This document shows positions 22,403-50,673 of a stretch of 64,000 bases of DNA, one piece after another. The notes beneath the pieces were generated by a model. It was not told the origin of the DNA and did no database searches. It saw nothing but the letters and a program-made list of their open reading frames with translations. Numbering within the stretch: the first letter of the stretch is position 1; every line of letters begins with the position of its first letter. The translations under genes and the position numbers were made by a program. Source of the stretch: an uncultured Bdellovibrionales bacterium (lineage in GTDB: Bacteria > Patescibacteriota > Minisyncoccia > Moranbacterales > UBA1568); contig CAZUWR010000001.1 in assembly GCA_964624415.1 (NCBI GenBank), forward strand, positions 180,256 through 244,255. The letters run 5' to 3'.

Positions 22403-22781
22403 CACGCTCTATCACGACATACCTATAAGCCGGATTCTGTGCATCGCTTTTGCAAGCGACCGGCTATCATTTCTCTAGGCGCGGCATTGCTGCCGTGCTC
22501 AAGCGGTACTCCTCGGATACAAATCCAAGGCACGACCTTGCACTCGGGTAAGGATTTAGCCGTTTCACCCTCGATATTGCTATCAAGGCTCATCCTCACC
22601 GAAATGAGGATGGCTTCTTTTTTCAAAGAAAGCCGTCTCTGCTCGCACCTCTGTCCTCGCGGACGACGGGAATTACCCGCTACCTGTCTGCTTGTGTCGC
22701 CACAAGCGAGTGTCCGGACTTTCCTCACCCTCCCGTCGAAACGGAAGGGCGCGATGGCCCGATATGTCGTGATAGAGCGTA
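22403..22781 (-). ncRNA. rnpB: RNase P RNA (bacterial type A-like)
   Basis: The minus strand contains the universal P4 motif GAGGAAAGUCCGGAC (+ strand 22711-22727) and the 3' motif ACAGAAUCCGGCUUA (+ strand 22424-22440). The 5' CGCUCUAUCACGACAUA and 3' UAUGUCGUGAUAGAGCG form a perfect 17-bp P1 helix. Length is about 380 nt. The ORFs at 22423..22728(-) and 22439..22858(+) are artefacts over this RNA. Confidence 0.85.
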
Positions 22782-22915: not shown

Positions 22916-25138
22916 TCATTTCTTGCTGTAGCGTCCATAGGTTGAAATACTGTCATCACCTGTACACGTAGGTTCTTCACCTCGAGGATTCACACAGGCT
23001 TGTATCGTATGCCATTGCTTTTTCCAGGAACCGTCTTTGGGTATTCTCCAACGGTCTCCGTCCATAGAGTCTTCATCCGTTTTACCCGGAGAAAGCTCGC
23101 TTGGAGAAATGGTGCCGTAACCGATGTTCCACCATGCTCCTCCTGTACCGTTACTTGCGATACGATAAAGCACTCTGACATTGTTAAGCGGTGAAGCTTG
23201 TCCGTCATTGCGCACCCAGATATCGGGATAGACATACTCACCGGTATTGGTGGTACAGCATCCTTTTTGGTCTTGAAATTTGATAATGACAAGATTTGGT
23301 TTAGGTCTGGGTTGTAAAGTGAAGCTCAGAGTCGAACAGTTGTTGTCTTCCCCTTCACTCGTAACCGCATTTTGATAATCAGCACACAGATAGGCCGTGC
23401 AATTTCCCGTCGCATTTGGCATCGTAACCGCAGCTTTGGTTTCTTCCCAGTTGTTTTGTCCGGGAATCAGGTTATAGCTTTCCGTTCCATCATCCGTCAG
23501 ATAGACGGTGCCGGTACCGGGGCATTGTACTGAATAACTGCTGCGGATACCGACTTGAGATGGATTGCTTCCGATGTTTTGGATATATCCGCCAAGTCTG
23601 CCTTGGTCTCCCGCATAAGTTGGAGTTTGTAAAAATTGAAGAGAATGAGCTATGAAGTCGATGTTTGGAACATTGACCACTTGCCCATCGGCTGTGACTT
23701 CGAAGACCGCTTCCGTCGAACCGTTATTGCTTTCGTGCTTTTCAGGATACGCTCCTCCGTTATTGTGATCATCTCTGATATGGTCGATGTAAGCAGTGAT
23801 GTTGTAAATACCAGGCTCGGGAATATCTCTCCAAAGCTCGATACCTTCTTCCTCTTCATGCGTCATCGCAGGAGTCATTCCTGATTTGAGGTGATCGCAT
23901 TGGATGAAATCGGTACCGACCCGTTTCCAGGCATGAGGTCCGCTATGGTCATCTTCTTTGTATCCTTTGGACAGATAGAAATGCACTTCAACCGGTTTTG
24001 AACAATCACCGTTGCCATCGCCTTTGTTTTCAAACTGAGCGTGCATCTGCATCTTCTCGGGAGAACCGTAGGTGTAGCTTTCCGTTTGCCAAGGAGTTGT
24101 GAGCCAGACTTTGTTGGTAACGTAGTCGGGTGGTGGAGATTCAATCGGATCAGTAACGGCAGACGCGCCACCAGGACCTTTTGATGGAATAGTGGCAAAT
24201 CGAGAGATGATTGTCGCCTGTCCGTTTGATAGCATATCATTCGGAATAGCGCCATTGGAATTATAAATTGCATCTGAAACTGCATCCTGAAAAGGATTAC
24301 CAGCGAAACAATCAATATCATCTCCTTGCTTTGCATACCAACAAATAGTTTTGTGATCAGGAACAACCATATTGCTGAAACCATCACTTTCCACTACAAA
24401 ATAGTCAAAGCCATCACCATTTCCGTCATTGGCATACCCATTCAATTGATGGTCACCATTATCATATGCAACTATCATTGGGTTAAGCAATGAAGTATCG
24501 ACGCTCACCTGAAAAATCAAACGCACATCACCGATTTCTTGAATCACAGGCATTGTCGATGGATTACTAATCGATGCACCTTGAGCATAAAAAGCGACAA
24601 CATACACTTTCCCGACTTCCAGTTTATGCGGATTTCGAATCACAACGCCATATCCCGGATGACTATCAAACTCAGGTGTATCTTGAAATAATCCTACGTC
24701 ATCATGGATATTTAATCCAACCGCTCTCCCAAGTGGACGAAAAACATTATTCTTCAACGGCGAAATATCAATCTCCAAACCCATTGGAAAACGAGTATTG
24801 GAATCAAGAAATTTTGACTTAAAGAAATCAATCATTTCATTATCCACTTTAAACGCTATGAGAATTACATTATCCCCAACCGCAACCTTACCTTTTGTTG
24901 GAATCCAACGATGAGGTCTGCTCAACAGTTGATTTTCTATGCCGCTCGCCTCAAACAAAGTTTCGTATCCTTGACCTTTGCATTGAGCATGTTTATTAGC
25001 GGTATCAAAAATAGAAATCTTTTGCGGCATAACCATACACCACCAATACGTTGAGCTTATTTTATCACTCAAAGTACCGGCAGCGACATTCTGCATTGCA
25101 AAGAGCAACGACAGTACTACTATTATACGTAAGAACAT
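22916..25138 (-). CDS. Large secreted protein with CARDB-like repeats
   Basis: 740 aa with an N-terminal signal peptide (MFLRIIVVLSLLFAMQNVAAG). It is Gly/Asn/Asp-rich. The CARDB-like segments are ...PEKHESNNGSTEAVFEV... and ...TSEGEDNNCSTLSFTL.... Confidence 0.5.
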   Translation of the reverse strand: MFLRIIVVLSLLFAMQNVAAGTLSDKISSTYWWCMVMPQKISIFDTANKHAQCKGQGYETLFEASGIENQLLSRPHRWIPTKGKVAVGDNVILIAFKVDNEMIDFFKSKFLDSNTRFPMGLEIDISPLKNNVFRPLGRAVGLNIHDDVGLFQDTPEFDSHPGYGVVIRNPHKLEVGKVYVVAFYAQGASISNPSTMPVIQEIGDVRLIFQVSVDTSLLNPMIVAYDNGDHQLNGYANDGNGDGFDYFVVESDGFSNMVVPDHKTICWYAKQGDDIDCFAGNPFQDAVSDAIYNSNGAIPNDMLSNGQATIISRFATIPSKGPGGASAVTDPIESPPPDYVTNKVWLTTPWQTESYTYGSPEKMQMHAQFENKGDGNGDCSKPVEVHFYLSKGYKEDDHSGPHAWKRVGTDFIQCDHLKSGMTPAMTHEEEEGIELWRDIPEPGIYNITAYIDHIRDDHNNGGAYPEKHESNNGSTEAVFEVTADGQVVNVPNIDFIAHSLQFLQTPTYAGDQGRLGGYIQNIGSNPSQVGIRSSYSVQCPGTGTVYLTDDGTESYNLIPGQNNWEETKAAVTMPNATGNCTAYLCADYQNAVTSEGEDNNCSTLSFTLQPRPKPNLVIIKFQDQKGCCTTNTGEYVYPDIWVRNDGQASPLNNVRVLYRIASNGTGGAWWNIGYGTISPSELSPGKTDEDSMDGDRWRIPKDGSWKKQWHTIQACVNPRGEEPTCTGDDSISTYGRYSKK

Positions 25139-25244
25139 TTTCTGTTCCTCCTGATGTTAAAGAGCTACAATGGTTTTCGAAAGGCGATGTTATGCCTTTC
25201 TTACAAAAGAGAGTTCTGATTCTCTTCTGAAAAGAAAGGAGCAA

Positions 25245-25679
25245 CTATTTTTTGGAAAGGATATCAATGAAGCTTTGAATGCGGGCAACTTGATCTTTTC
25301 GACCATTACTCTCACGTTCATTTGCCTTACTTATCCAAAGTAACTCTCCCTGAGCAATCTCCAACAATTCTTCTTTTGTATACTCTTTTCCCCACGCAGT
25401 TTTTTGTTGTCCTCGATCTATTGCAAGAAAAACGGCGTCATTTTCAGTGAAAAGAGGGTATATTGGCATTCCTTTTGGATATTCTTTGATACAATTTCCG
25501 TTAATATAATCATCAACACCGCAATGCCGATAGGAAACAGGGGGATCTGGCACAAAAATTGTTTTATAGTACACGACATCTTGAACATATAGAATAGCAA
25601 CCCAAAGTAAATAGAGACCAACCAGAGCAATAAAAGGAGTCGCTAAAATCCACAAAGAAATTCTGGTTATTTTTTTCAT
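25245..25679 (-). CDS. Hypothetical membrane-anchored protein
   Basis: 144 aa with an N-terminal TM helix (ISLWILATPFIALVGLYLLWVAILY). Confidence 0.4.
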   Translation of the reverse strand: MKKITRISLWILATPFIALVGLYLLWVAILYVQDVVYYKTIFVPDPPVSYRHCGVDDYINGNCIKEYPKGMPIYPLFTENDAVFLAIDRGQQKTAWGKEYTKEELLEIAQGELLWISKANERESNGRKDQVARIQSFIDILSKK

Positions 25680-25786
25680 ATCATGACATTATTAATATTC
25701 TTAGACCCTTATGAATCCGGGGAATTCCGAACCCGTTTCCAAACGACGGAGTTTCTCATCGCGTGGAAAGGATTCGGAAAAATGCC

Positions 25787-26509
25787 TTATCTGAAAAATT
25801 TCATACTCTTTAGAATGTTAGGGTAAGCAGCTCTAACTTCTGGATATCCAATAAGACCGTATGACAACGAGACTCTACTATTTTCTCGAAATATATCTGC
25901 ACTCAAACCAAATCCGCCATCCAATACGACCGCAGGATACTTATCAATAGTGGTCGTGAAAATCTTATCGCCGTATCCTTGTTTTCTTTTCAGCATAGCC
26001 TCTCTATAATTTAATGGCGTAGATGATATATTTTTATTTTGATAAATATATAAACATAAAGCATCTTCCTTCCCTCCTTCGTACCAATATTCTTTTCCTT
26101 TCTGTCCAAAACACACACCAAATTGTTCATTTCCACTGTAATACTTTGCAGTGGATGCATCCTCAGATTTACTTAAATCATTCACATACCAATCCTTGGG
26201 TATCTTTATCTCAAACCCCATTGCCTCATTGCGATACGTTTGCCATTTGGAGGTGTCTACCGGGCTAAAAGTATACTCTCCATCAATAATATCATTGATA
26301 CTATCCAGCTCATTTCCTTGCGACACCGCCATCTCCGCGGACTGGCCATCAGACACATTTTGTCCGGGAATCGTATATATCGTCTTTATTTCACCCTCTA
26401 TCGGCGAAACTGTCATTTTCTGTTTCGTATACCAAAACCACCCACCGACGACGATAGCAATAATGAGTACGATAATGGCTACAATTAGCCTCTTTGAGAT
26501 GTTTTGCAT
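25787..26509 (-). CDS. Membrane-anchored protein of the MQNISK family (paralog of 46298..47035)
   Basis: The N-terminus MQNISKRLIVAIIVLIIAIVVGGWFWY is nearly identical to that of the paralog. Both share the internal motif W-x-TYRNE-x-GFE-x-K-x-PK. The start is at 26509; the ORF track extends to 26551. Confidence 0.5.
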   Translation of the reverse strand: MQNISKRLIVAIIVLIIAIVVGGWFWYTKQKMTVSPIEGEIKTIYTIPGQNVSDGQSAEMAVSQGNELDSINDIIDGEYTFSPVDTSKWQTYRNEAMGFEIKIPKDWYVNDLSKSEDASTAKYYSGNEQFGVCFGQKGKEYWYEGGKEDALCLYIYQNKNISSTPLNYREAMLKRKQGYGDKIFTTTIDKYPAVVLDGGFGLSADIFRENSRVSLSYGLIGYPEVRAAYPNILKSMKFFR

Positions 26510-26621
26510 AGGATGATATATGTTTCTTAAAGCTATGCTTGAGAATAGCAAGAATTGGCGCTTGCGTCAAGTATTTTTTCAGCTCTACATAGAGAAAATA
26601 TAGATATGCTCGCTTTGAACA

Positions 26622-37373: not shown

Positions 37374-38615
37374 CTATTCATACCGCAAGGCCTCCATCGG
37401 GCTCACCTGGGCGGCTTTCTTGGCAGGATAGAGACCGAAGACGATACCGATAAAGAGTACGACTGACAGAGCTACCAATGCTGACTGGAGCGTGAGGATA
37501 AATTCCCATTCATAGCCCAGGCTCCGAATAACCACCGATGCCAGATAGGTCAAAGCAACCCCGAGGATGAAGCCGAGCACGCCGCCCGCCAAAGAAATGA
37601 AGACTGACTCGACGATAAACTGGAATTCGATGTCCGTATTGCGCGCACCCAAGGCCTTGCGCAGCCCCACCTCGCGGATGCGTTGTTTGAGCGCGATGAG
37701 CATGATATTCATAATCCCGATACCTCCGACAAACAGCGAGATACCCGCCACAAAGGTGAGGAAGTATTTGAGCACATTGGTCACATTGGTCAGGATAGAC
37801 AAAGCATCCGCCGTATTGCGTATGGAAAAATCATCCTCCTTATCGCCTTTGAGCTTATGCTTATCGCGCAAAATAGCGCGCATACTCTCACTCACCGCAG
37901 CGATGTTTTTTTCATCGTCCACCTTCATGCGGGACAGATTGATATAGTCGATACCGAGCAACAGTTTCTGCGCCGTCAAAAGTGGCACAAATACCATCTG
38001 ATCGGGATTGGAAAACCCCGAGCTCCCCCGTTTTTCCAATACACCCACGACGGAAAAATTCACATCCCCAAAAGAAACCGTCTTGCCCAGAGGATCGTCA
38101 GCACCGAAAAGGTCATTGGCCCGATCCGCACCCAGCACCACCACACGAGCCAATCGATCATTCTCATCCTTGGTAAAAAACCTCCCTTGCCCGATGATAA
38201 TTTTTTCCACCTGCGGAAGCGCTGGAGAGACGCCCTGATAAGTCATAGAAAACGACTCACTCTTATACGACACGGTCGCCGAGCCACTCACATACCCGGA
38301 CGCCGCCACAATATGCGGGTTTTGCTTCACGATAGCCTCTATATCCGACATTTTGAGCGTCGTTGTAATAACGCCAAGAGCCGAGGCGGGCGGTCCATTG
38401 GAATCCGAAGCTCCAGGAAGCACACCTACCAGATTCGACCCCACCGAGCGAATCTGACCCAAGATAAGGGCTTGCGCCGAAGCACCAACCGACATCACCA
38501 GTATCACCGAAGCGATACCAATCACAATACCCAGTATCGTCAAAAACGTCCGAAACTTCGAAGCGGACAGATTCTTCCAGGCCATTTTCATGGAGCGATA
38601 GATTTGTGGAATCAT
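37374..38615 (-). CDS. ABC transporter permease, MacB/FtsX family (paralog)
   Basis: 413 aa with the same architecture as 35566..36816. Confidence 0.8.
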   Translation of the reverse strand: MIPQIYRSMKMAWKNLSASKFRTFLTILGIVIGIASVILVMSVGASAQALILGQIRSVGSNLVGVLPGASDSNGPPASALGVITTTLKMSDIEAIVKQNPHIVAASGYVSGSATVSYKSESFSMTYQGVSPALPQVEKIIIGQGRFFTKDENDRLARVVVLGADRANDLFGADDPLGKTVSFGDVNFSVVGVLEKRGSSGFSNPDQMVFVPLLTAQKLLLGIDYINLSRMKVDDEKNIAAVSESMRAILRDKHKLKGDKEDDFSIRNTADALSILTNVTNVLKYFLTFVAGISLFVGGIGIMNIMLIALKQRIREVGLRKALGARNTDIEFQFIVESVFISLAGGVLGFILGVALTYLASVVIRSLGYEWEFILTLQSALVALSVVLFIGIVFGLYPAKKAAQVSPMEALRYE

Positions 38616-39739
38616 AGATGTCTGCTTAATACTCTCAATCGCAATAATGGATACGCCGTCGCTATGAACAAAAATCCGGCAAAGATGTACATCAGTATCG
38701 CGAAAGAATACCGATCAAGAATAAATCCGGAAGCGAAAATCATACCGGCGGAAAACAATCTCAACACAAGACTCTTCAAAGACAAAACACTGGCGCGTAC
38801 CGATGCGTCGATAGTCTCGGTTATATCGACATCAAGCATCGTCTCAATGTAGCCCCGCAGTATATGCATCGCAAAAAGCGCTGCAATAGCCGTGGAAATA
38901 TGCTGTGTGTAACCGAGCATCACTATCAGACACAAAAAAATGAGTGTTGTTATTACTAGCGACCATCGGCGTACTTTTCGATATATATGCGCGCCAAAAG
39001 CGATCAAAAGCGTTGCGATACTGATAACAATCCCCCACTGCGCCACAGGGATATGCAGTTGCAAGAAAAGTGGATTATAAAACCATTTGAAACTAAAGAA
39101 AAAAGCCCCCCACATCGAAGCGATGCCGATCAATACACGCAGTTTTTGATTCCGCCATACAGTCTGCATACCCGTTCGAGCGGTGGCGAAGATATTGCCT
39201 GAAAGCTTTTCATACTGATACTGACCGATAGAAAATGTAAACGCACTCGCTATCAAGAAAAAAAGCGCCGACAAGTAGAATGGGTATCGCAAATCAAAAG
39301 ACGCTGCAAAACCGCCGAACGCGATGGCGCAGACGGACATTATGATACTATACAACCTCACTTGTGCATAATCGTCCTTGAAGTTCTGTGATAATGCGTG
39401 GATCAATGCCGTATCGCTCCCGGACACCAGCGCGGCACCGAGCGCTCCAAATACCAGCAATGCAGCATACATTGCAAACGAAACCGGGAATACCATCACC
39501 GCAAATACCACGCTCAAGAGCAAGTAGCCCAAAGACATCGAAACCTTATGGGAAAAGTAATCCCCGATAACTCCCGTAGGGTATTCGAACAGCACGATGC
39601 ACAAGGAGTAAAAAGCGAGCAATTCATAGGTTTGCGTCGTCGTCACGCCTTTCGTAGTGAGAAACAACACAAAAGTCGGCATCCAAAATTGGCAGGATGC
39701 GAATATGATAGCCAATTTTGCTTTCGTCAGTGCATTCAT
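38612..39739 (-). CDS. MFS transporter
   Basis: About 12 TM helices. The start is probably the Met of MNALTKAKL at 39739, which avoids overlap with the upstream ATPase. The ORF track gives 39820. Confidence 0.65.
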   Translation of the reverse strand: MNALTKAKLAIIFASCQFWMPTFVLFLTTKGVTTTQTYELLAFYSLCIVLFEYPTGVIGDYFSHKVSMSLGYLLLSVVFAVMVFPVSFAMYAALLVFGALGAALVSGSDTALIHALSQNFKDDYAQVRLYSIIMSVCAIAFGGFAASFDLRYPFYLSALFFLIASAFTFSIGQYQYEKLSGNIFATARTGMQTVWRNQKLRVLIGIASMWGAFFFSFKWFYNPLFLQLHIPVAQWGIVISIATLLIAFGAHIYRKVRRWSLVITTLIFLCLIVMLGYTQHISTAIAALFAMHILRGYIETMLDVDITETIDASVRASVLSLKSLVLRLFSAGMIFASGFILDRYSFAILMYIFAGFLFIATAYPLLRLRVLSRHL

Positions 39740-39746
39740 AAGCAAT

Positions 39747-40562
39747 CTATTTCGCCAAATCGGTTTCATCTTTGGCGATGCGACGGATTTTGATGAGATC
39801 ATCGGCGATGATTCTTCCATCCTTCATATAGAGCATGCGCTTGGCGTGATTGGCAGTAGTGGTTTCGTGCGTGACGAGTACCACGGTGTGACCCGCGTCA
39901 TTGAGCGCCTGCAGTATCATCATCACCTGCAGTCCCGATTTAGAATCCAGGTTCCCTGTTGGCTCATCCGCAAAAATAATATCAGGATTGTTGACCAGGG
40001 CGCGCGCGATAGCGACACGCTGCATTTCCCCGCCCGAAAGTTGATTGGTCATATAGTCGCGGCGATGCTCCATCCCTACGGCCGTGAGCGCTTCCATCAC
40101 CTTCGTCTCATGCGTTTCCCGGCTCATCCCCGACCACATCTTAAAAAACGATTGCTTGAGCGCCGCAGGATCAGGCGTTGAAATACCGCGAAAAGCCCGG
40201 CGACTCACACCGTACACATCATACAGAAGCGGGAGCTCGACATTCTCAAACACGCTCGTGCGCGGGAGCAGGTTGAACGACTGGAAAATGAATCCTATTT
40301 TCTGATTGCGGATTTCGGCCAATTCATCCTGCGAGAGACTTGTTACATTTTTCCCGAGGAACAGATATTCGCCCGACGTCGCCTGATCGAGCAGTCCGAG
40401 CAAATGCATCAGTGTGGATTTGCCCGAGCCGGACGGCCCCATGAGCGCCACGAATTCCCCCTTGTCGATAGCAAAAGACGCCTCCGCCAGAGCGACGGTC
40501 TTAATATCGCCGCTCTCGTATATTTTGGTCAGCTTGTCGCACTGGATGAGGGGTTCATTCAT
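39747..40562 (-). CDS. ABC transporter ATP-binding protein (MacB/LolD-type)
   Basis: Walker [10 protein letters not shown]; ABC signature [15 protein letters not shown]; Walker [13 protein letters not shown]. The start is the Met of [11 protein letters not shown] at 40562. Confidence 0.85.
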
Positions 40563-40563
40563 A

Positions 40564-41886
40564 CTATTTCTTCGTCTCAGTGATAACCTGATCCCCTTCG
40601 CTAATACCGGAGATGATTTCAATCTGGCCGTCACTGCCTTCCAGGCCAACTTTCACTTCCTTACGGACAGCGGTTTTACCATCAGAGCTCTTCACCTCCA
40701 CATAGCGCGTGTTGCCGTCTTGTTTGACCGCGCGCGTCGGCAACAGCAAGACGCCTTTTCTCTCGGCGATATGGATATCGATATCCCCACTCATTCCTGG
40801 TTTAAGACGCTTATCGATATTCGCCAATCGCAGTTTCACTTTGTAGTACACGACATCCTGGATAACGGTCGATTCCGGATCGATTTCCACAACGCTCGCA
40901 TCGAATTTCTCATCCGATCCTAGGGCATCGAAGGTGGTTGTTGCAGTTTGATTGAGCTTAACCGAAGCGATATCGGACTCGGGAATCTTGGCTTCCAGAA
41001 TCATATCCGCAGACAAAAGCCTCCCGAACGATTTGGCTACGGCGGATCCGATCACTTCGCCTCGCTGATAATTAAGTACTGTCACCGTACCATTAACCGG
41101 CGCCTTCAAGAGGGCTTTGTCGAGATTATTCATCGCGATATCATAGTTAGACGATGCGATGGCGATGGCGCTGTTCTCGATGATCTGCTTGCTCTTGGAT
41201 TCGAGCGACTTCACATTTTCTTTTTGTGAATCATAACTGTTTTCAGCAACCCTTACCGCCACGTCACGATTGCGTCGCGCGGTATCCTGAGCCTCCTTGG
41301 CAGCTTCCTTGGCATTGGTGGCAGCTGTCAAAGAAAGCTTGGCATTCTTGGCTGTCGAACCGCTCGCACCATTATCGCTGACCACCTGGTTATAATAGCT
41401 CTGCACATCTGCTTCATAATTCACGGCATTGTCATAGGCTTTATCGGCAGCATCGACTTTCTGGTCTTCCGCATCGGACACATCCGACGCATACTGCTTG
41501 GCATTCTTCTCGGCATTGCGCGCCTCGCGCAACACATCATCATTGACACCCGCATCAGCTTGAGCCTTATCTAGAGCCGCCTGCGCTTTTTTGACATCCT
41601 CGGTCAGGGCGACGGATTCGACGGATGCCAAAGTATCGCCCGCACTGACTTGCGCGCCGACCCTGGTCGAAATATTCTTCACCCGTCCGGCCGTCTCGAA
41701 ATTCAGATCGATTTCCTGATCAGCCAAAAGCGTTGCCGAGGCGGACACGAGTTGGGAAATATCGCCCCGAGACACCGGCGCCGCCACAAACAAATCCTGA
41801 TTCGCATTACGCTTGGCATACCACCAGTATCCCCCCACCACCATGATGACGATAATCCACAACCACTTCTTCTTGAAAATCGACAT
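40564..41886 (-). CDS. HlyD/MacA-family periplasmic adaptor (membrane fusion protein)
   Basis: 440 aa with an N-terminal TM helix, a coiled-coil middle region and a barrel-sandwich hybrid domain (AAPVSRGDISQLVSASATLLADQEIDLNFETAGRV). Confidence 0.75.
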   Translation of the reverse strand: MSIFKKKWLWIIVIMVVGGYWWYAKRNANQDLFVAAPVSRGDISQLVSASATLLADQEIDLNFETAGRVKNISTRVGAQVSAGDTLASVESVALTEDVKKAQAALDKAQADAGVNDDVLREARNAEKNAKQYASDVSDAEDQKVDAADKAYDNAVNYEADVQSYYNQVVSDNGASGSTAKNAKLSLTAATNAKEAAKEAQDTARRNRDVAVRVAENSYDSQKENVKSLESKSKQIIENSAIAIASSNYDIAMNNLDKALLKAPVNGTVTVLNYQRGEVIGSAVAKSFGRLLSADMILEAKIPESDIASVKLNQTATTTFDALGSDEKFDASVVEIDPESTVIQDVVYYKVKLRLANIDKRLKPGMSGDIDIHIAERKGVLLLPTRAVKQDGNTRYVEVKSSDGKTAVRKEVKVGLEGSDGQIEIISGISEGDQVITETKK

Positions 41887-42963: not shown

Positions 42964-45900
42964 TTACTTCGGCATCACATAATCCCCTGCCGTTACATCC
43001 ACCACTATCCCCGAACCGAAAGCGAAGGTGGCGACGCTTTGCCAACTTTTCGTACCATTGGTCAGTGTCAGATAGGCATTGCCCCCAAACTCGGGAGGCA
43101 GTCCCGTAAAGACGAGAGTCCAGATACCACTTGATGAACGAGCAACCGTTCCGGCAATCAGTTTGGTTGCCTGACCGGTCGGAGCTATCCACGCATCGAA
43201 ATACCCGTCTTTGGTGATGTGAGAGATATTGGTAATACCGTTGAATGATGTCAGCATCCGACTATCGCCATTGATAGTAAGCGTCAGTTTTTGCTGGCCT
43301 TTGTCATAGGTCACCTCTCTTTTTTGAAAAGGACTGGCACTAAGTGGGAGTTTGTAGTCTCCATTGGCATTGACGATGGTTGCACCCACAGGTAGTATCC
43401 ACTGATTGGTGGTTTGCCATCCAAATTGAGTTCCATCAGTCAGTCCGAGAAGTATCCTTCCCGTGCTTCCCGGAGCGACGTTTGCTATGCTCGCTATCAG
43501 TTTCCCGTTCGCATCACAACTCAATTGCCCTGGCATTCCCGGATAATTGTCTTGGTCATTGTTCCAAAAGACTTTTCCGTTGAGGACAGTGCCTGTCGGG
43601 AGCCAGAATCCTGAAATGACCTTTGATGAGAAAGCGGTATTGAGCGCCATACCCGAAGCATCTTCACTGACCGTAACCGTATTGGGAGTCCATCCGTTGT
43701 AACGGATATGTCCATCGGTATCATTTTCTAAAAGAGTGATGGTACTTGGATTGACCCAGTATTCCGTATCCCCTTGTTTGAAAGACCACGTGCCTTTCGA
43801 AGCCTGAGGGGTGTTGGGAATATCCACTATCCAGTTGGTTCCTTGTAAAGTGAATGTATTGGCACAAGCTGTTGATGCAGTCACTCCCCAATTGGTATCG
43901 GCAGAATTAAAACAAATCCTTGTTACCAAGGACGGATGAAAAGAAGAGAAGCCTCCCCACACCAAACTGATTTTTGCTTGCACCAAGGTGGATGCAGGTA
44001 GAATCAGTCTTTGCTTGTTGTTCCCGAAAATGACCGCGCCGACGTCTCCACTTTGGATAGTCGGTATAGCGTTGAAGTCAGGGTCGGGCGCTTGCGCGCA
44101 ACTGGTGATGAGTGGGATGTTGGCCGGTTTATACACTATGGTATATACCGTCAACACCTTTTCAACACAGTTATCGCCTTCATTGGACTCGGCTATTTCC
44201 CCAAGATAATCGACACACGCTTTGAGAGTGTGCTGACCCGGAGTCGAAATCGAGAACTTCTCCAGCGTTTCCCGCTTGGTTTTACCTGTCGGTAAGTTTA
44301 TGGCCTGTACCTGGTCGGTACCCGCCAAGATACCGTCCCGATAGTAACCGATTTTGATAAGTTTATCCGCCAATCCGCCATCATTTCTGACTGTGAATCC
44401 GGGAGTAAACGTTTCATTGACTTCGATGACCTGTTCTCCGCCGAGGTCTATGGAGACACCGACGAGACTGGGTAACGGACGCACTTCATACGGCATCGAT
44501 TTGCAATTGTCCGTTTCATTGGTTTCCGCAATACGGTTATCAAAGTCGGGACAAACCATCAGCGTATGCATGCCGGGTGTCATCGGAGCGATAGCAACAC
44601 TAAGATTTTCCACCTTACTGACACCGCCCTTAAGATTTTCCCGTTGAATCCGGTCTGTACCAATGAGCGTGCCGTCATTGTAGTAGCCGATAAGCATGGT
44701 TTTTCCAAAGTTTTCTTCATTGTTTGTCAAAGTAGCGTCAATACTGAATGTTTCACCCGGAAGTAAAACGGTCTTATTGCCGATGATGGTTATATTGGTC
44801 GTCAATACATTAGCATTGCTCCACACAGTGAAAGGGTCTTCGATATGGCAATTGTCATTTTCTTTCAATTCCTTCACTTGACCCTGACTCGGTCCTGCGG
44901 AATCCGTACACCACACAAGATTGTACTTTCCCGGAAACTCCGGGGCAATAAAGTCTTCGTGCTCGGTATTGGTAGCGCCTTTGGCAAGACCTTTCGTATC
45001 TTCTTTGCCTTGGTCTTTCGGATTAGTGTCTATCTTATCCCCGTCGGATATCCAACACTGACTCTGAAACGCCGTCGCATCTTTAGTGCCGATATTCTTC
45101 GTCTGCATCCTGCAAAAGCCCGGTTCATTGATGTGCAATGTCGTGACCTTTGTCTTGGATGCGTTTTCGACATCGGAATTGTTGGCAATGAGATTGGCGA
45201 GTGTTCCGGTGTTGGTACCGCCGGTGACAGGCATCGGACCTGCGACTTCGGAACCGCCGCCAGCGTCTCCTGCACCTCTTGTACCTGCAAGAAAAACTGC
45301 ATCCTGAAAAAACATCATCGGGTTTACTGGTTTTTGTAAAGTATTGGCGCAATATGATTGTATTGCAGCATTACTCAGATTCCACGCCGCAGATAAAACA
45401 CCACCCTCACTTTTGAAATAATTTGTGTGAGAAGTTCCATTAACACAAGCTGAATTATTTACGCCTCTTGGATTCATCCAACACAAAATACCTCCTCCAA
45501 AGTTTTCATTAAGAACAAGACAATTTCCAGCACTATATCCATTAGATAAAATAAAATTAATGGGATTAGTATACTGTGATTTTATCCAATCGGAGTTGTG
45601 TCCAGCAACCTCGCAAAAATACGATGGATTAGTGGCTTTTTCATGCTCAGGTCTCCGCACTTCAAAGTGTAGATGTGCTGATCCTGACGCGCCATTATCC
45701 CATATACAACCAATCTGCTGACCAATTTTTATATTGTCGCCCAATTTTACTTTTGTGAATGAATGTCCCTTACCATTTACTGTTGACTGACATTGTACGG
45801 GATCCAGTTCAGCATGACCATAAATGGAGTAATATTGTACATTACCCATTGTATGCTCTAGAGAAATCCTTGACCAACCATTATCAATAACTGAAATGGC

Positions 45901-46185
45901 TTTTCCGTTAGCAATAGCATATATAGGAAAACCTTTATCTCCATTGGCAGTAGTGCCTTTTTTATTTATATCGACACCTGGATGAAGAATAGCTGAATCC
46001 CCACAGCTAGGATAAGGGGTAACATTGCCATTCGAAGCTTTGGTATCCTCTAAAAAATTATAACCAATCTGCTCAGATGGATTAAAATCAACGGGTGATC
46101 GAATCGTATTCTCACTATGCACTAAACATGGCATAGCCACTACCACAGATAAACCCAAACAAAACACTTTCGTTAGCTTTTTCAT
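42964..46185 (-). CDS. Large secreted M23-family metallopeptidase with multiple CARDB-like repeats and a C-terminal beta-rich domain
   Basis: 1073 aa with a signal peptide. The M23 motifs are HxxxD (GHAELD) and HxH (SAHLHFEV). CARDB-like repeats follow (PGMHTLMVCPDFDNRIAETNETDNC; TPGQHTLKACVDYLGEIAESNEGDNC). The C-terminal roughly 400 aa are Gly/Thr/Asn-rich. Confidence 0.7.
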   Translation of the reverse strand: MKKLTKVFCLGLSVVVAMPCLVHSENTIRSPVDFNPSEQIGYNFLEDTKASNGNVTPYPSCGDSAILHPGVDINKKGTTANGDKGFPIYAIANGKAISVIDNGWSRISLEHTMGNVQYYSIYGHAELDPVQCQSTVNGKGHSFTKVKLGDNIKIGQQIGCIWDNGASGSAHLHFEVRRPEHEKATNPSYFCEVAGHNSDWIKSQYTNPINFILSNGYSAGNCLVLNENFGGGILCWMNPRGVNNSACVNGTSHTNYFKSEGGVLSAAWNLSNAAIQSYCANTLQKPVNPMMFFQDAVFLAGTRGAGDAGGGSEVAGPMPVTGGTNTGTLANLIANNSDVENASKTKVTTLHINEPGFCRMQTKNIGTKDATAFQSQCWISDGDKIDTNPKDQGKEDTKGLAKGATNTEHEDFIAPEFPGKYNLVWCTDSAGPSQGQVKELKENDNCHIEDPFTVWSNANVLTTNITIIGNKTVLLPGETFSIDATLTNNEENFGKTMLIGYYNDGTLIGTDRIQRENLKGGVSKVENLSVAIAPMTPGMHTLMVCPDFDNRIAETNETDNCKSMPYEVRPLPSLVGVSIDLGGEQVIEVNETFTPGFTVRNDGGLADKLIKIGYYRDGILAGTDQVQAINLPTGKTKRETLEKFSISTPGQHTLKACVDYLGEIAESNEGDNCVEKVLTVYTIVYKPANIPLITSCAQAPDPDFNAIPTIQSGDVGAVIFGNNKQRLILPASTLVQAKISLVWGGFSSFHPSLVTRICFNSADTNWGVTASTACANTFTLQGTNWIVDIPNTPQASKGTWSFKQGDTEYWVNPSTITLLENDTDGHIRYNGWTPNTVTVSEDASGMALNTAFSSKVISGFWLPTGTVLNGKVFWNNDQDNYPGMPGQLSCDANGKLIASIANVAPGSTGRILLGLTDGTQFGWQTTNQWILPVGATIVNANGDYKLPLSASPFQKREVTYDKGQQKLTLTINGDSRMLTSFNGITNISHITKDGYFDAWIAPTGQATKLIAGTVARSSSGIWTLVFTGLPPEFGGNAYLTLTNGTKSWQSVATFAFGSGIVVDVTAGDYVMPK

Positions 46186-46297
46186 TTTACTACCTCATAA
46201 GTTGTCAATGTACCATATTTTCGAGAAACAGTTGTCCCTCGAGAGTGGCACTATTATATACAAATATAGCAACACTCTTAGAAGGACCCTGAAATCA

Positions 46298-47035
46298 CTA
46301 ACGACTAGTCTCAATAAGACGAAAAGATTGAATGAATCCAAGGGATGTTCCGTGGATATTCGACATCTCATCAAACTCATAATTCCCTATACCTGAACTG
46401 GAAACATACGCATATTTCAGATCATCAACAGCTTCTTTTTGCTCTACGGAACGTTTCTCAAAAACAGCATACACAGCGCCACTCGCTCCATCTGTCTTTT
46501 GTATAGATACGTTTTGACGAAGTGGTTTAGATATAAACTGATTTCCAGATTCAGCTGCAAAATCTTTTTTCCACACAGTTATAGTTATACCATTTGGATA
46601 ACCGCTCAATGAACCCTTCTCTCCAAAGTAAAATGCATGCGCTCCATCCATACCGGAAGTAGTGAGTCCTAAATCAGTTTCGGTTACTACCCATTCACAA
46701 TCATACGTTTTTTGATTACAGTAATTACCATAACTTTTTTTCGGGTATTTAACTTCAAAACCAAACTCTTCATTGCGGTAAGTCTCCCAATTTGAAGTAT
46801 CGTCTGCTGTAGAAAAAAATTCTTGAGGAGGAATATATTGTGGCTCATAGGATTCCAATGTATCTGAAGTTAAGGGGATGTTACTTTTTGAAACATTAAT
46901 CGCTTGGGATATTTCTTGCTGCTGCTTTACTTCTCCTGGTTCCCGTACGGAAGCATACCAAAACCACCCACCGGCAACAATGGTGATAATGAGTACGATA
47001 ATAGCTACAATGAGCCTCTTTGAGATATTTTGCAT
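46298..47035 (-). CDS. Membrane-anchored protein of the MQNISK family (paralog of 25787..26509)
   Basis: N-terminus MQNISKRLIVAIIVLIITIVAGGWFWY. The 5' region, including about 40 nt upstream, is about 88% identical at the nucleotide level to 26429..26552. The remainder of the protein is divergent. Confidence 0.5.
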   Translation of the reverse strand: MQNISKRLIVAIIVLIITIVAGGWFWYASVREPGEVKQQQEISQAINVSKSNIPLTSDTLESYEPQYIPPQEFFSTADDTSNWETYRNEEFGFEVKYPKKSYGNYCNQKTYDCEWVVTETDLGLTTSGMDGAHAFYFGEKGSLSGYPNGITITVWKKDFAAESGNQFISKPLRQNVSIQKTDGASGAVYAVFEKRSVEQKEAVDDLKYAYVSSSGIGNYEFDEMSNIHGTSLGFIQSFRLIETSR

Positions 47036-47190
47036 ATAATATGAGTAAGTTTCTTAAAGCTACTCTTGAAAATAGCAGAGATGCATATTCCCGTAAAGGC
47101 TTATGCAAAGCAAAATTGCACATCCTATTCCCTATTCAACCCACCAAAAAGAAGAAAGGAATCCCTTTGCCATTTTTTCAAAAAATCCCC

Positions 47191-48372
47191 TTACTGCAAG
47201 ATTACGCTTATCTTTTTTTCTTCTTTGCCGCGAACCACGAGAAACTCCGCCGTGTCACCCTTCTTCAATCGTCCCACCACCATCGAGAGCGGGTTATCCA
47301 GGTTTATTTCAGCACCGTTCACGGATACGATAATATCGTTGACCGCAAACATCGCCTTATCCGCAGGAGATCCGGCGATTACCGCCAATCCCAATTTTCC
47401 CGAAGGAGAATACACTAAGGCGCCATGATCGCGCTCAAAGTGATACGCAAGATTCATTTCCTGGGTAATGGAGCGGTAGTAGAGTCCCAGTACCGGTCGT
47501 GTGGCCAGATTGCCTGAAAGCTGCAGATCCAGGGATGACTTGATCACATTGGCTGGGATAACGAAGTACTGCTTCTGATTATCCAGTTCCGTCAACGCTA
47601 CCATACCTACCATTTCGCCGTTGTAGTTGATAACAGGTCCTCCGATATAGTCTTTCTGATTCGGAAAATCCATCACTAATACACCCTCCATCTTTTCAGA
47701 TGAAGAAACGGTCTTTTCCGAAAGATTGAATGTCTTGTCGACAGTATTGAGCAATGCGGTCGAAAATTGATCCTGATATCCCTGCGCGGCCATCGCCAAA
47801 GCGATAAGCTTTTTTCCCGAACGGACATCCGACGAATCCGCAAAAGAAATCGCCGGTACATTGGTCGCTTGAATTTTCAAATACGCGAGATTGGTCAGTG
47901 TATCGATTCCGACCAGGTCAGCGGTATAATTCACTCCGTTGAAAAGCACGACGGTATAGTGGGCATTCTTTTCAGTTATCGCCTTACGATACGTCACAAT
48001 CAATCCGTCATTGGTGACCAAAATACCCGATCCGACAAGCAAAGGCGAGGTCGCGGCAACGACCGGCGCATCCCCTACTGCCTTGGTATTTTTAACTTCA
48101 TCAGTCACGCTGACGATTTTCACGACAGCCGTCGTTGCTTGCGAGGCTATCTTTTCCACCGAATCATCTTCGCGTACCACCACCTGTTCCGTCTTGTTGA
48201 TGATGGTCGTAGTCTCGGTAGCTTTTTTCAAAAAAGCGAAACGGGAAAAAACGGATGAATCCGCAAACTTAGGAATAATGTATCGTTCGACTATAACGGA
48301 ACCGACACCTCCGAGGAACATAATCCAAAGAATCACTATCAGTATCCGACCGATTTTTTTCAACACATTCAT
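47191..48372 (-). CDS. HtrA/DegP-like trypsin-fold protein with PDZ domain and a degenerate catalytic triad (predicted inactive)
   Basis: 393 aa with an N-terminal TM anchor. Aligned to the S1C motifs it reads GSGILVTNDGLIVTYRKAI (His missing), NLAYLKI (Asp to Asn) and DYIGGPV in place of GNSGGP (Ser to Ile). The C-terminal PDZ domain is intact. Confidence 0.6.
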   Translation of the reverse strand: MNVLKKIGRILIVILWIMFLGGVGSVIVERYIIPKFADSSVFSRFAFLKKATETTTIINKTEQVVVREDDSVEKIASQATTAVVKIVSVTDEVKNTKAVGDAPVVAATSPLLVGSGILVTNDGLIVTYRKAITEKNAHYTVVLFNGVNYTADLVGIDTLTNLAYLKIQATNVPAISFADSSDVRSGKKLIALAMAAQGYQDQFSTALLNTVDKTFNLSEKTVSSSEKMEGVLVMDFPNQKDYIGGPVINYNGEMVGMVALTELDNQKQYFVIPANVIKSSLDLQLSGNLATRPVLGLYYRSITQEMNLAYHFERDHGALVYSPSGKLGLAVIAGSPADKAMFAVNDIIVSVNGAEINLDNPLSMVVGRLKKGDTAEFLVVRGKEEKKISVILQ

Positions 48373-48543: not shown

Positions 48544-49284
48544 CTAAGACACCGGGAGCCACCGCGTACTCGTCAGTACCATACCTATCAAAAAGATAAA
48601 GAGTACGGTATGGGCCAGAATATATTTTTTAGACAGCGTCTTCAAAAAATAGCTCTGCACCATATACCACAGCAGGTAGTAAAACATAAGCACCACCACT
48701 CCCGTAGTCAGATACCCAAAAGGCCAGAAATTGATAATCCAGGCCACCTCTGCCAAAGACAATCCAAGCAAGAGGCTGTATATACGTGCCAGGCGCGCAT
48801 CATTCTTATCGAAAATCAGAAAATACTGATAGCTTACCAGCGCCGTCGCAATGCAGTACGCCAACATCAATCCTCCAATGGGAATGGCGAAGTTAAGGTA
48901 TATGCCATATGCCCCCGCATAAAAGAGGAAAAGCGTGGACATGCTCGCAAAAGCCATCAATCCGCGGGCTGTCTGATCGCGCTTATAGTATCGTAACCTA
49001 TATATGCCTAAAAAAGCAAGGTAATAGGCACAAAAACTCAGCATGATTAGCAATTGTTGCTGCTTGAACGAATCGACCAGATACAGGATCATCACCGAAG
49101 AAAGGGCGAAAACAAGCGGTATTATCCCAGAAAAAGAGCTTTTCCCGAATTTTTTGGCGGCCTGAAACGTCACAAAAGCAATGGTGGCGGCGACCAAAAA
49201 CACCCACTCGTTCTGAAAGACGATGAGCTCGAGTCCGCAAAGGAACAACAACGCAGAGAAAAGGACGGAAAAATTGAAAAACAT
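48544..49284 (-). CDS. Hypothetical polytopic membrane protein
   Basis: 246 aa with about 7-8 TM helices and no recognisable catalytic motif. Confidence 0.4.
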   Translation of the reverse strand: MFFNFSVLFSALLFLCGLELIVFQNEWVFLVAATIAFVTFQAAKKFGKSSFSGIIPLVFALSSVMILYLVDSFKQQQLLIMLSFCAYYLAFLGIYRLRYYKRDQTARGLMAFASMSTLFLFYAGAYGIYLNFAIPIGGLMLAYCIATALVSYQYFLIFDKNDARLARIYSLLLGLSLAEVAWIINFWPFGYLTTGVVVLMFYYLLWYMVQSYFLKTLSKKYILAHTVLFIFLIGMVLTSTRWLPVS

Positions 49285-49377: not shown

Positions 49378-50673
49378 CTATTTCTTCTCTTCCAGTGTCA
49401 CTTTCACGGTTTTCGTCTCACCTTTGTGCCACACGGTCAACGACAACGTATCGCCCGGTTTATGATCAGCGATAACATCAGCCACCTGCTGATTGGCATC
49501 TATTTTCACACCATCGATCTCAGTAATCACATCGTTTTCCATAAGTCCGGCCTTATCGGCAGGAGACCCTGGTATGACGGCGAAGTCAGTCATTTTCTCT
49601 CCTCGCAAAATGAGCGCACCATGATCGACCGCTAAATTATTCTCTTTTTGAATTTCAGTCGTCAGCATACTGTAGCGGACTCCCAAATAAGCCGTCGTGA
49701 TCTTTCCGGTCGACTGCACCTGATCGATAATTTTTTTTATCTGATTGGCGGGAAGGGCAAATCCGATGCTCTGAGCCCCCTGCGCCATAGCAACATTCAC
49801 TCCGATGACTTTTCCTGAAATATTCAAGAGCGGCCCTCCGGAATTACCGGGATTGATAGCAGCATCGGTCTGAATGATATTGCTGAGGTATTCGCTTCCG
49901 CCCGCATCACCGCCAGCGACAAGATTCCGCCTCAGTCCTGATATGATTCCTTTGCTCACGGTATTGGAAAACTCGCCCAAAGAATTGCCGATGGCCACGA
50001 CACTTTGTCCGACCTTGATGGTATCAGAATTATCGAATTCGAGAAAAGGCATATTCTGCGCGTCGATTTTGAGTACAGCGATATCCCTGTTCGGATCACG
50101 TGCCAGCACCTTCGCCTTATACTCCTTTCCATCGGTCGTGATAACCGTATAATCCGCACCTGTCGAAGAAACCACATGCTTATTTGTAACAATCATACCA
50201 TCCGAAGACACCAGAAATCCCGAACCCTGACCGATAGTCTGTTTCTCGGTATCATTTCCTCCGGTAGCACCGCGATCTTGACTACCTTGCGGCATCATAA
50301 AAAAGGGAAATCCGAAGAAGCCATTACCCCTGTTTTGCAGTTTCGGGACATCCTGACTGATAACCACGCTCACAACAGCTGGTGAGGCTGCCTCGACCGT
50401 CGCTATGACCGCGGTATCTTCTGCGCCTATGTCTTGTTTCGTCGCGGAAGCATTCTGACTGCGTACGGATGATGACTGTTGCGGCAGATGCTTTGCCAAA
50501 AATGGCATCCGATGCTCTAGCGTCGGCAATGCCATGAAAGCCACCACTCCGCCCACAAAACCGGCGACAAGACCTAAAAGCATAGTAATAACTCTCTGGC
50601 TACAGCGAAAACGTCTAAACCTCTCTGTGTGCGTATTATTGACAGGCGTCTCTTTTTCAAAAGAATGATTCAT
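49378..50673 (-). CDS. HtrA/DegP-family serine protease (S1C) with PDZ domain
   Basis: The intact triad motifs are GSGFLVSSDGMIVTNKHVV (His), DIAVLKI (Asp) and GNSGGPLLN (Ser). There is a C-terminal PDZ domain and an N-terminal TM helix. Confidence 0.85.
   Translation of the reverse strand: MNHSFEKETPVNNTHTERFRRFRCSQRVITMLLGLVAGFVGGVVAFMALPTLEHRMPFLAKHLPQQSSSVRSQNASATKQDIGAEDTAVIATVEAASPAVVSVVISQDVPKLQNRGNGFFGFPFFMMPQGSQDRGATGGNDTEKQTIGQGSGFLVSSDGMIVTNKHVVSSTGADYTVITTDGKEYKAKVLARDPNRDIAVLKIDAQNMPFLEFDNSDTIKVGQSVVAIGNSLGEFSNTVSKGIISGLRRNLVAGGDAGGSEYLSNIIQTDAAINPGNSGGPLLNISGKVIGVNVAMAQGAQSIGFALPANQIKKIIDQVQSTGKITTAYLGVRYSMLTTEIQKENNLAVDHGALILRGEKMTDFAVIPGSPADKAGLMENDVITEIDGVKIDANQQVADVIADHKPGDTLSLTVWHKGETKTVKVTLEEKK

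Follow-up and report, generated by a model that had tools for sequence, protein, structure and literature searches.

Endolysins of phages that infect Gram-positive bacteria, like the bacteriolysins lysostaphin and zoocin A, are secreted enzymes in which an N-terminal M23 or CHAP active domain precedes a non-catalytic body, and their heads have been shuffled on a constant body. The known immunity proteins against bacteriolysins, Lif and Zif, are cytoplasmic FemABX-type enzymes. Polymorphic toxin-immunity loci (CdiA-CT/CdiI, Rhs, LXG) carry a variable enzymatic domain on a conserved scaffold with a fixed exchange junction, an adjacent small gene that co-varies with this domain, and extra or orphan small genes. 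Where immunity is membrane-anchored, as with Cmi for colicin M and TipC for TelC, the protein faces the compartment in which the enzyme acts. Here we describe a two-gene module that shares traits with both groups. It occurs twice, as modules A and B, in a stretch of 64,000 nucleotides (nt), hereafter the window, of contig CAZUWR010000001.1 (assembly GCA_964624415.1, positions 180,256 to 244,255 of the forward strand). Gene 1 encodes a small protein predicted to be membrane-anchored, gene 2 a large secreted protein with an N-terminal head and a CARDB-type body. The two copies are evidently paralogues of a lineage-specific module of Moranbacteria-like bacteria of the candidate phyla radiation (CPR). 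The open reading frames (ORFs) named in an earlier sequence-only reading of the window are all present on the minus strand at both loci:

42964..46185, minus strand: modular M23-CARDB protein of locus B, 1073 amino acids (aa) (ORF, Pfam)
46298..47035, minus strand: anchor B, a 245-aa MQNISK single-pass membrane protein, starting MQNISKRLIVAIIVLIITIVAGGWFWY (ORF)
22916..25138, minus strand: 740-aa secreted protein of locus A (ORF)
25245..25679, minus strand: 144-aa membrane-anchored protein of locus A (ORF)
25787..26509, minus strand: anchor A, a 240-aa MQNISK protein with PsbP-like ectodomain, ATG at 26509 (ORF)

As that reading had noted, the order of an MQNISK protein followed by a large secreted CARDB protein recurs at 22.9-26.5 kb. 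In module B, a 112-nt spacer separates the two genes. A longer ORF opening with TTG at 26551 in locus A is translated promoter region. These are the only two copies in 64 kb; they lie 20 kb apart in direct orientation with pheT between them.

In several respects the module departs from the described systems. The body of the 1073-aa protein consists of CARDB repeats and a domain of ~385 aa, not of SH3b, LysM or the target-recognition domain of zoocin A, and proteins of the window type are much larger (700-1200 aa). The membrane-anchored PsbP-like protein encoded upstream is unrelated to Lif and Zif. Compared with polymorphic toxins the polarity is inverted: the variable head is N-terminal, behind a Sec signal peptide, and the partner gene lies upstream and not downstream. 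Export is by the plain Sec route, without a dedicated secretion system or trafficking domain, and the conserved left arm of the module is the promoter and signal anchor of the partner gene.

Comparison of the window with related contigs by blastn resolved both modules into conserved and replaced segments:

46941..47120, minus strand: left conserved arm of module B, with promoter, 5′ untranslated region (5′UTR; TAGCTTTAAGAAAC...) and first ~30 codons (MQNISKRLIVAIIVLIITIVAGGWFWYASV) (blastn, motif alignment)
45265..46940, minus strand: variable block of module B, with anchor ectodomain, 112-nt spacer, signal peptide and M23 head (blastn, protein high-scoring pairs, Pfam)
42966..45252, minus strand: right conserved arm of module B, with linker, CARDB body I and C-terminal domain (blastn)
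26429..26571, minus strand: left conserved arm of module A, with promoter, 5′UTR and first ~27 codons (promoter scan, blastn)
24136..25709, minus strand: replaced block of module A, with 144-aa gene, spacer, signal peptide and 316-aa head (blastn of A against locus L007)

Against locus L002, module B is 85% identical in the left arm (47102..46945) and 87% identical in the right arm (45252..42966, one CARDB repeat being an indel), whereas the intervening 1.69 kb (46944..45253), which encode an M23 head in B and a CHAP head in L002, have no similarity at all. Indeed, the variable block of module B is without DNA similarity to its counterpart in each of three loci with CHAP heads (L002, L003 and L004). 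In all three comparisons the right breakpoint falls within 12 nt, at 45252-45264, in a Gly-rich linker (aa ~308-312), which resembles the fixed exchange junction of polymorphic toxins. Module A and L007 are 84% identical in the arm and part of the ectodomain, diverge after the hairpin that follows the anchor gene, and become similar again only in the body, from 24135 onward; in L007 the hairpin is directly followed by an M23 head, in locus A by the 144-aa gene and the 316-aa head. A further protein, P0174, is 86% identical to the locus A body, yet its head is of the M23 type. Its contig and that of the A-like anchor P0005 are equal in length (11496 bp), from which alone their neighbourhood is deduced. 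The mosaic of B against L002 and of A against L007 therefore indicates that the upstream small gene moves together with that 5′ portion of the large gene which encodes the head. The sequence-only reading had placed variable surface proteins downstream of a constant 5′ cassette. Instead, the DNA comparison shows that the main variable element is a block of 1.6-1.7 kb, exchanged between two conserved arms, that runs from ectodomain through spacer and signal peptide to head.

Thirteen further modules were inspected in their context on Moranbacteria-like contigs and tabulated together with the two window modules according to head and neighbouring gene:

M23 or CHAP head: same-strand gene with a single transmembrane (TM) helix and PsbP-like start motif immediately upstream, 10/10
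locus-A-type 316-aa head: homologue of the 144-aa protein immediately upstream, 3/3 (window, L010, L013; 33-36% identity, E ~1e-14)
divergent head (L013b): 102-aa polytopic membrane protein immediately upstream, one case

The 144-aa ORF of locus A is not incidental, as it accompanies the 316-aa head in all three loci inspected. At the level of sequence the table establishes an obligate pairing of the predicted hydrolase with an outward-facing membrane-anchored small protein. Such co-variation of an adjacent small gene with the head (10/10 and 3/3) is again reminiscent of polymorphic toxin-immunity loci, physical linkage being an alternative cause. So are the extra or orphan small genes, represented here by the anchor retained in locus A and by two PsbP-like single-TM genes that stand in tandem before an M23 module on the L010 contig. 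Two different MQNISK-family proteins, P0004 and P0021, come from 6955-bp contigs, which suggests tandem or nearby anchor genes in another genome.

By domain searches, the 1073-aa protein is a Sec-secreted, modular protein and putative peptidoglycan hydrolase, in which a catalytic head precedes a body of the binding type. Both large proteins begin with a Sec-type signal peptide, and their layouts are as follows:

1073-aa protein: signal peptide, aa 1-24; M23 head, ~60-190; neck; Gly linker, ~308-320; three CARDB-type repeats, ~325-681; conserved C-terminal domain, ~690-1073, ending FAFGSGIVVDVTAGDYVMPK
740-aa protein: signal peptide; head without family match, aa 1-316; CARDB-type body II, aa ~317-740

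The proposed M23 and CARDB assignments were borne out by Pfam. In the 1073-aa protein, Peptidase_M23 (PF01551) scored 36.8 bits (gathering cut-off 28.7; E = 4.5e-9) and CARDB 92.4 bits; the CARDB score of the 740-aa protein is borderline (24.6 bits against a cut-off of 22.7), and in homologues CARDB scores reach 122 bits. At least two CARDB repeats had been predicted for the 1073-aa protein; they form three stretches. The M23 catalytic set is intact, as had been read from the letters, with H68-PGV-D72 (HxxxD), YGH124 and H171-L-H173-F-E (the HLHFE motif, aa 171-175), and the head aligns with M23 chains in the PDB including lysostaphin (E down to 4.6e-6). A large C-terminal domain likewise exists, of ~385 aa, but it is not strongly Gly/Thr-rich as first described: Thr and Gly make up 11.5% and 10.2%, compared with 9.3% and 10.2% of the whole protein. 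It has no internal repeat and no Pfam family, and a profile of body I with this domain gave no significant match in the PDB. The two large proteins are 25% identical to each other, in the CARDB region only. The 316-aa head of locus A has conserved C53, W78, E122, D124, D153, C266-W267 and C277 and no conserved His; it found nothing in the PDB (profile of head and body II; phmmer of the 740-aa protein), NCBIfam or PHROGs.

As in endolysins and bacteriolysins, heads have been shuffled on a constant body. Homologues with body I share linker, CARDB repeats and C-terminal domain, and four of the seven have a CHAP head in place of M23. In an aligned set of six sequences with CHAP or its motif (P0024-P0029), the Cys-containing motif is found in all six and the His-containing motif in all but P0025. 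The 740-aa protein has 128 homologues that share its C-terminal ~420 aa, i.e. body II. Among the 120 of them that were listed, 61 have an M23 head, 10 a CHAP head and ~16 a locus-A-type head, the rest being mostly short and headless. The CARDB body, with or without the C-terminal domain, most likely binds the target surface. The source names of body II homologues are Candidatus Moranbacteria or Moraniibacteriota; several are labelled as metagenome-assembled genomes (MAGs) of Accumulibacter, Undibacterium or Thermodesulfovibrionales, which look like binning contamination, the distribution being otherwise confined to Moranbacteria. When the anchor alignment was used to scan the genome and metagenome collections, each returned one locus, that from the genome collection being a Moraniibacteriota MAG. 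These named homologues are the basis on which the module is assigned to Moranbacteria.

Each of the three small window proteins has one N-terminal hydrophobic helix with positive residues before it, as seen in hydropathy profiles, so that the bulk of the protein should face outward. Like Cmi and TipC, the candidate immunity protein would thus face the compartment in which the enzyme acts. In anchor B, a TM helix (residues ~4-29) and a linker are followed by a divergent PsbP-like ectodomain starting at W83-ETYRNEEFGFEVKYP. Anchor A is 48% identical to the L007 anchor over the full length. Beyond the shared 5′ cassette, protein comparison of anchors A and B confirmed that they have diverged except for the W-x-TYRNE-x-GFE motif. 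Anchor A has no PsbP_2 match in Pfam; weak matches occur in 9 of 19 MQNISK-family proteins (best 8e-7), and a neighbouring gene, L010_204, is recorded as PsbP_2. The motif is widespread: an exhaustive HMMER search found it in 1243 cluster representatives, in most of which the match is confined to the strand motif D-x-S-x-W-x-TYRNE-x-x-GFE-x-KYP (residues ~74-100) and often recurs within one protein. Ten motif-sharing representatives were scanned with Pfam; PsbP_2 was above the cut-off in seven (six with 45-71 bits, one with 29.9), below it in two, and without a match at E <= 0.01 in one. By this transitive sequence evidence, the ectodomain appears to be a fast-evolving PsbP-like domain and not a mere anchor.

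Proteins of the DUF1795/Eag group of type VI secretion systems (T6SS) have a Mog1/PsbP fold. A paper on T6SS effector-associated accessory proteins (PMC4524185) reportedly uses the term 'PsbP-like' once. The window anchors resemble Mog1/PsbP-fold proteins in that the ectodomain opens with a PsbP_2-type strand motif (WxTYxNxxyGFxfkYP), and they resemble DUF1795/Eag proteins in being encoded beside a secreted effector-like enzyme. However, Eag chaperones are cytoplasmic, whereas the window anchors are membrane-anchored, extracytoplasmic and below the PsbP_2 threshold. Weak Pfam matches of the anchor helix to an archaeal pilin N-terminal family were discarded as hydrophobic-helix noise, as there is no class III signal motif. 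The small proteins had no matches in NCBIfam or PHROGs.

On balance, we think it somewhat probable that the module as a whole encodes a polymorphic secreted peptidoglycan hydrolase aimed at foreign walls together with a membrane-anchored partner that is specific to the head and probably acts as inhibitor or immunity protein. The structural description is much more secure than the immunity role. Gene 1 would provide a small N-in/C-out membrane-anchored protein, and gene 2 a Sec-secreted hydrolase with the build of an endolysin or bacteriolysin. The middle block would be exchanged by homologous recombination in the arms on either side, which would also explain why near-identical 5′ cassette DNA stands beside a saturated remainder of gene 1. 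Over 55 module pairs, ectodomain similarity tracked head similarity (Spearman 0.47, p = 3e-4) but not body similarity (-0.19, not significant). Because it is the head, and not the body, with which the ectodomain varies, the small protein is likely to be a head-specific partner on the producer's own surface, where it might serve as inhibitor, immunity protein or safety catch that guards the producer's peptidoglycan. The hydrolase could then be directed against the walls of other cells, be they competitors or, for an episymbiont, its host or prey. An action on host or prey, as the sequence-only reading had proposed, is plausible.

Several points weigh against this interpretation. Most of the related loci are short metagenome contigs of unknown genome membership. 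The 55 module pairs are not independent of each other, and co-variation of ectodomain and head could stem from physical linkage alone, as the segments are adjacent on the DNA. Moreover, PsbP-like anchors of one broad type adjoin both M23 and CHAP heads (L004, L008), and locus A retains its PsbP-like anchor despite the changed head. The PsbP_2 score of anchor B is 12.4 bits (E = 0.16), below the 27-bit gathering score. The AlphaFold2 models are poor and lend no structural support: that of anchor B, from 19 aligned sequences, has a mean predicted local distance difference test (pLDDT) score of 47 and reaches confidence in no part but the TM helix and the first beta-hairpin (83-98), and that of the 1073-aa protein, from eight aligned sequences, has a pLDDT of 44 overall, with beta-sandwich strands over residues 460-680 at ~70. 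Finally, the module of L004 and that of L005 are directly followed by genes for class A penicillin-binding proteins, which would also suit a housekeeping role.

Such a role, in which an autolysin remodels the cell's own wall for growth and cell separation under a membrane-anchored regulator or tether, is the alternative that survives best, although we consider it rather unlikely. In Gram-positive bacteria, the pairs FtsEX-PcsB, ActH-LytH and SpdC-SagB comprise a membrane partner that positions or activates a wall enzyme. In favour of it, autolysins usually have M23 or CHAP domains, the small protein of the module is membrane-anchored and outward-facing, and these organisms make peptidoglycan and need hydrolases. 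A housekeeping pair is not expected, however, to swap an M23, a CHAP or an unassigned head on one body amid arms that are 87% identical, nor to have partner ectodomains diverged past detection by BLAST, nor to occur as several paralogous modules per contig or genome, as in the window, L010 and L013. In addition, the genes that surround the window modules are unrelated (GroES, RNase H, HtrA and PheT).

The second group of evidence concerns the left arm. A search with anchor B found 17 further proteins, in 14 of which the N-terminus is near-identical (MQNISKRLIVAIIVLIIAIVAGGWFWYASVQ), with very different C-terminal parts. The conservation extends to the DNA: promoter boxes, leader and the first 27 codons are conserved in ten loci, and on other metagenome contigs the cassette is 89-98% identical. 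Its upstream part is a predicted sigma-70-like promoter. In locus A, a -35 box TTGACG is separated by a 17-nt spacer from a TG-extended -10 box TATTCT (TGCTATTCT); in locus B, TTTACG and a 17-nt spacer precede the TG-extended -10 box TGCTATTTT. The leader TAGCTTTAAGAAAC is conserved and has no obvious Shine-Dalgarno sequence. In locus B the promoter region is non-coding because a 1-nt indel puts it out of frame with the ATG. The first ~30 codons of the module B arm encode the N-in signal-anchor helix, and the arm matches L006 (47120..46941, 88%), L002 (47102..46945, 85%), L003 and locus A (47077..46955, 85%). Thus, the suggestion that a shared promoter and signal-anchor cassette heads diverged genes was correct.

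Codon usage sets the cassette apart from the rest of the genes. In a core set (A, B, L002, L003, L006 and L007), the same codon is used at 73-92% of identical residues in the cassette, compared with 33-55% elsewhere; in the distant members L004, L005 and L009, codon sharing in the cassette is at background. The lowered synonymous divergence does point to recombination or to constraint at the nucleotide level, i.e. the cassette would either have a younger common ancestry than the remainder of the gene or be constrained in its nucleotides. Conserved RNA structure was rejected as the cause, as RNAalifold gave -10 kcal/mol with no compensatory pairs. A terminator-like hairpin with T-run in the coding part (46983..46968 and 26457..26442, minus strand; IVAGGWFW codons) is probably a by-product of the GGWFW codons and shows no covariation.

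A conserved 5′ non-coding and membrane-targeting coding sequence ahead of divergent paralogues, repeated in the genome and with conserved synonymous sites, is also the hallmark of the vsp, vlp and vsa genes of Mycoplasma. By analogy, the cassette could be an expression site for alternative bodies within one cell line, as in antigenic or phase variation. We regard this as improbable. Both window copies have a complete promoter and ORF, which leaves no silent cassettes, and inversion or reciprocal exchange between A and B would be no workable switch because the copies are direct, 20 kb apart and separated by essential genes (pheT). Unlike the Mycoplasma proteins, the N-terminus has no lipobox Cys; there is no homopolymer in the promoter spacer, there are no inversion sites, no tandem repeats in the variable parts (judged by eye only) and no recombinase among the annotated flanking genes. 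The diversity of the module is seen between contigs or genomes.

A very improbable origin is simple duplication followed by recent gene conversion confined to the two 5′ ends of this genome, as the sequence-only reading had in part suggested. Modules A and B have DNA in common only at 47077..46955 and 26550..26429 (84.6% over 123 columns), which gives the cassette bounds asked of a nucleotide alignment, and cassette patterns occurred exactly twice in the window against none expected. The shared tract, first put at about 88%, is real, with an identity of 85-89% overall against saturation elsewhere: identity amounts to 89% over the first 81 coding nt and to 66% over the 62 nt before them, and falls sharply to background after ~codon 27. 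This unevenness speaks against a simple recent duplication, as argued before, and the sharp edge would suit conversion. Nevertheless, A and B are not the closest pair over the first 81 coding nt:

A against L006: 98%
A against L003: 94%
B against L006: 90%
A against B: 89%

In the promoter spacer, A clusters with L007 and B with L006, and with only ~66% identity there and the functional boxes kept, the pattern looks like selection on elements and less like a single fresh tract of conversion. Since A and B each have a closer relative elsewhere and the cassette occurs throughout the family, a private conversion between them is not needed. Least probable is a remnant phage lysis cassette with the large protein as endolysin and a holin-like upstream protein: PHROGs endolysin and metallo-endopeptidase families do match the M23 head, and head plus binding body is an endolysin-like layout, but these matches are confined to the generic M23 domain and do not extend to the small proteins, the large protein bears its own Sec signal peptide, the ~200-aa external domain of the small protein is unlike holins, no phage genes lie nearby, and the module occurs in differing chromosomal contexts at at least 10 loci.

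Two kinds of element between the genes bear on the expression of the module:

25710..25780, minus strand: stem-loop directly after the anchor A stop codon (-36.3 kcal/mol, z = -4.1; no U-tail)
46195..46225 and 25148..25180, minus strand: motif before gene 2, also in L002, L004, L005, L008, L009, L012 and L013

The stem-loop of locus A is 96% identical to that of L007 and thereby exceeds the flanking coding DNA in identity (blastn). Stem-loops without U-tail also follow the anchor gene in L007 (6693-6763, z = -5.8), L008 (2424-2475, z = -5.6) and L004 (5995-6034, z = -3.8); locus B has a weak fold signal over the whole spacer. The element could be a terminator, an attenuator or an RNA-stability element. 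In at least 11 of 14 large genes, the motif (G)TTCTTTGACAA or GCTCTTTAACA stands 8-25 nt before a clear Shine-Dalgarno sequence, often with TTCGAA ~17 nt upstream. It accompanies any type of head or body, and no such motif precedes the small genes. In appearance it is a weaker promoter of its own with a short leader, and it may act as second promoter or operator. This arrangement suggests that small protein and enzyme can be expressed independently. Gene 1 would have its own strong promoter and be closed by a stable hairpin, gene 2 would have a Shine-Dalgarno sequence and a weaker site that resembles a promoter, and such separate signals would let the partner be made independently of the enzyme.

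Several neighbouring features deserve mention. A class A bacterial RNase P RNA (22410..22770, minus strand; 122 bits, full length) lies ~150 nt downstream of the 740-aa gene. It is the sole match of an Rfam scan, and spurious ORFs (22423..22728 and others) are listed over it. A MacAB-like export set (37374..41886, minus strand) lies a short way downstream of module B, with GroES and RNase H genes intervening:

40564..41886, minus strand: HlyD-type adaptor
39747..40649, minus strand: ATP-binding cassette (ABC) ATPase
38612..39820, minus strand: major facilitator superfamily (MFS) protein
37374..38615, minus strand: MacB/FtsX-type permease

In other bacteria, transporters of the FtsX type control wall hydrolases. 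On its upstream side, module B directly adjoins a DUF5656 polytopic membrane protein (48544..49284, minus strand) with an HtrA-like trypsin-PDZ protease on either side (47191..48372 and 49378..50673, minus strand). Among the related contigs, L010 (459-2528) encodes a LAGLIDADG endonuclease and a group II intron-like reverse transcriptase (RVT_1); both ORFs closely precede the module with 144-aa homologue and 316-aa head. In L011/L012 (7317-11310; MAG GCA_030645735.1 of Moranbacteria), an M23-CARDB module is directly followed by an AAA_15/TOPRIM protein of the OLD family and a helicase of the UvrD type; this pair looks like a Gabija-type defence system. The UvrB homologue of a Moraniibacteriota MAG (L005, 968-4621; 1217 aa) has a large insertion past Walker A that looks like an intein with homing-endonuclease domain. 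In L003, a separate 103-aa secreted protein (4816-5127) follows the 647-aa CHAP-CARDB gene, a module without C-terminal domain.

We found no description of this module in the searchable literature; M23 peptidases in Patescibacteria have been noted only speculatively, as possible lytic factors (PMC11393006). Little has been established about the ways in which CPR bacteria (Patescibacteria) kill, attach to or feed on their hosts, and here the module offers a candidate family of host- or competitor-directed lytic enzymes, a candidate cognate protection protein and a recombination architecture that can be tracked in metagenomes. It also places some members of a very large and so far unannotated family of CPR bacteria, the PsbP-like 'WxTYxNxxYGFxFxYP' family, in a context. 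If the partner is an inhibitor, it would represent a new class of immunity protein against peptidoglycan hydrolases, and the polarity of a variable N-terminal head with an upstream partner would be new for polymorphic toxins. With less than even confidence, we suggest that Moranbacteria, and perhaps other CPR episymbionts, may possess an 'inverted' polymorphic effector-immunity system, in which a CARDB-targeted, Sec-secreted wall-lytic enzyme attacks host or rival cells, its head and a surface-anchored, head-specific inhibitor encoded upstream make up one exchangeable cassette, and the conserved arms serve as recombination handles. If true, such a system would let populations shuffle lytic chemistries together with the matching self-protection.

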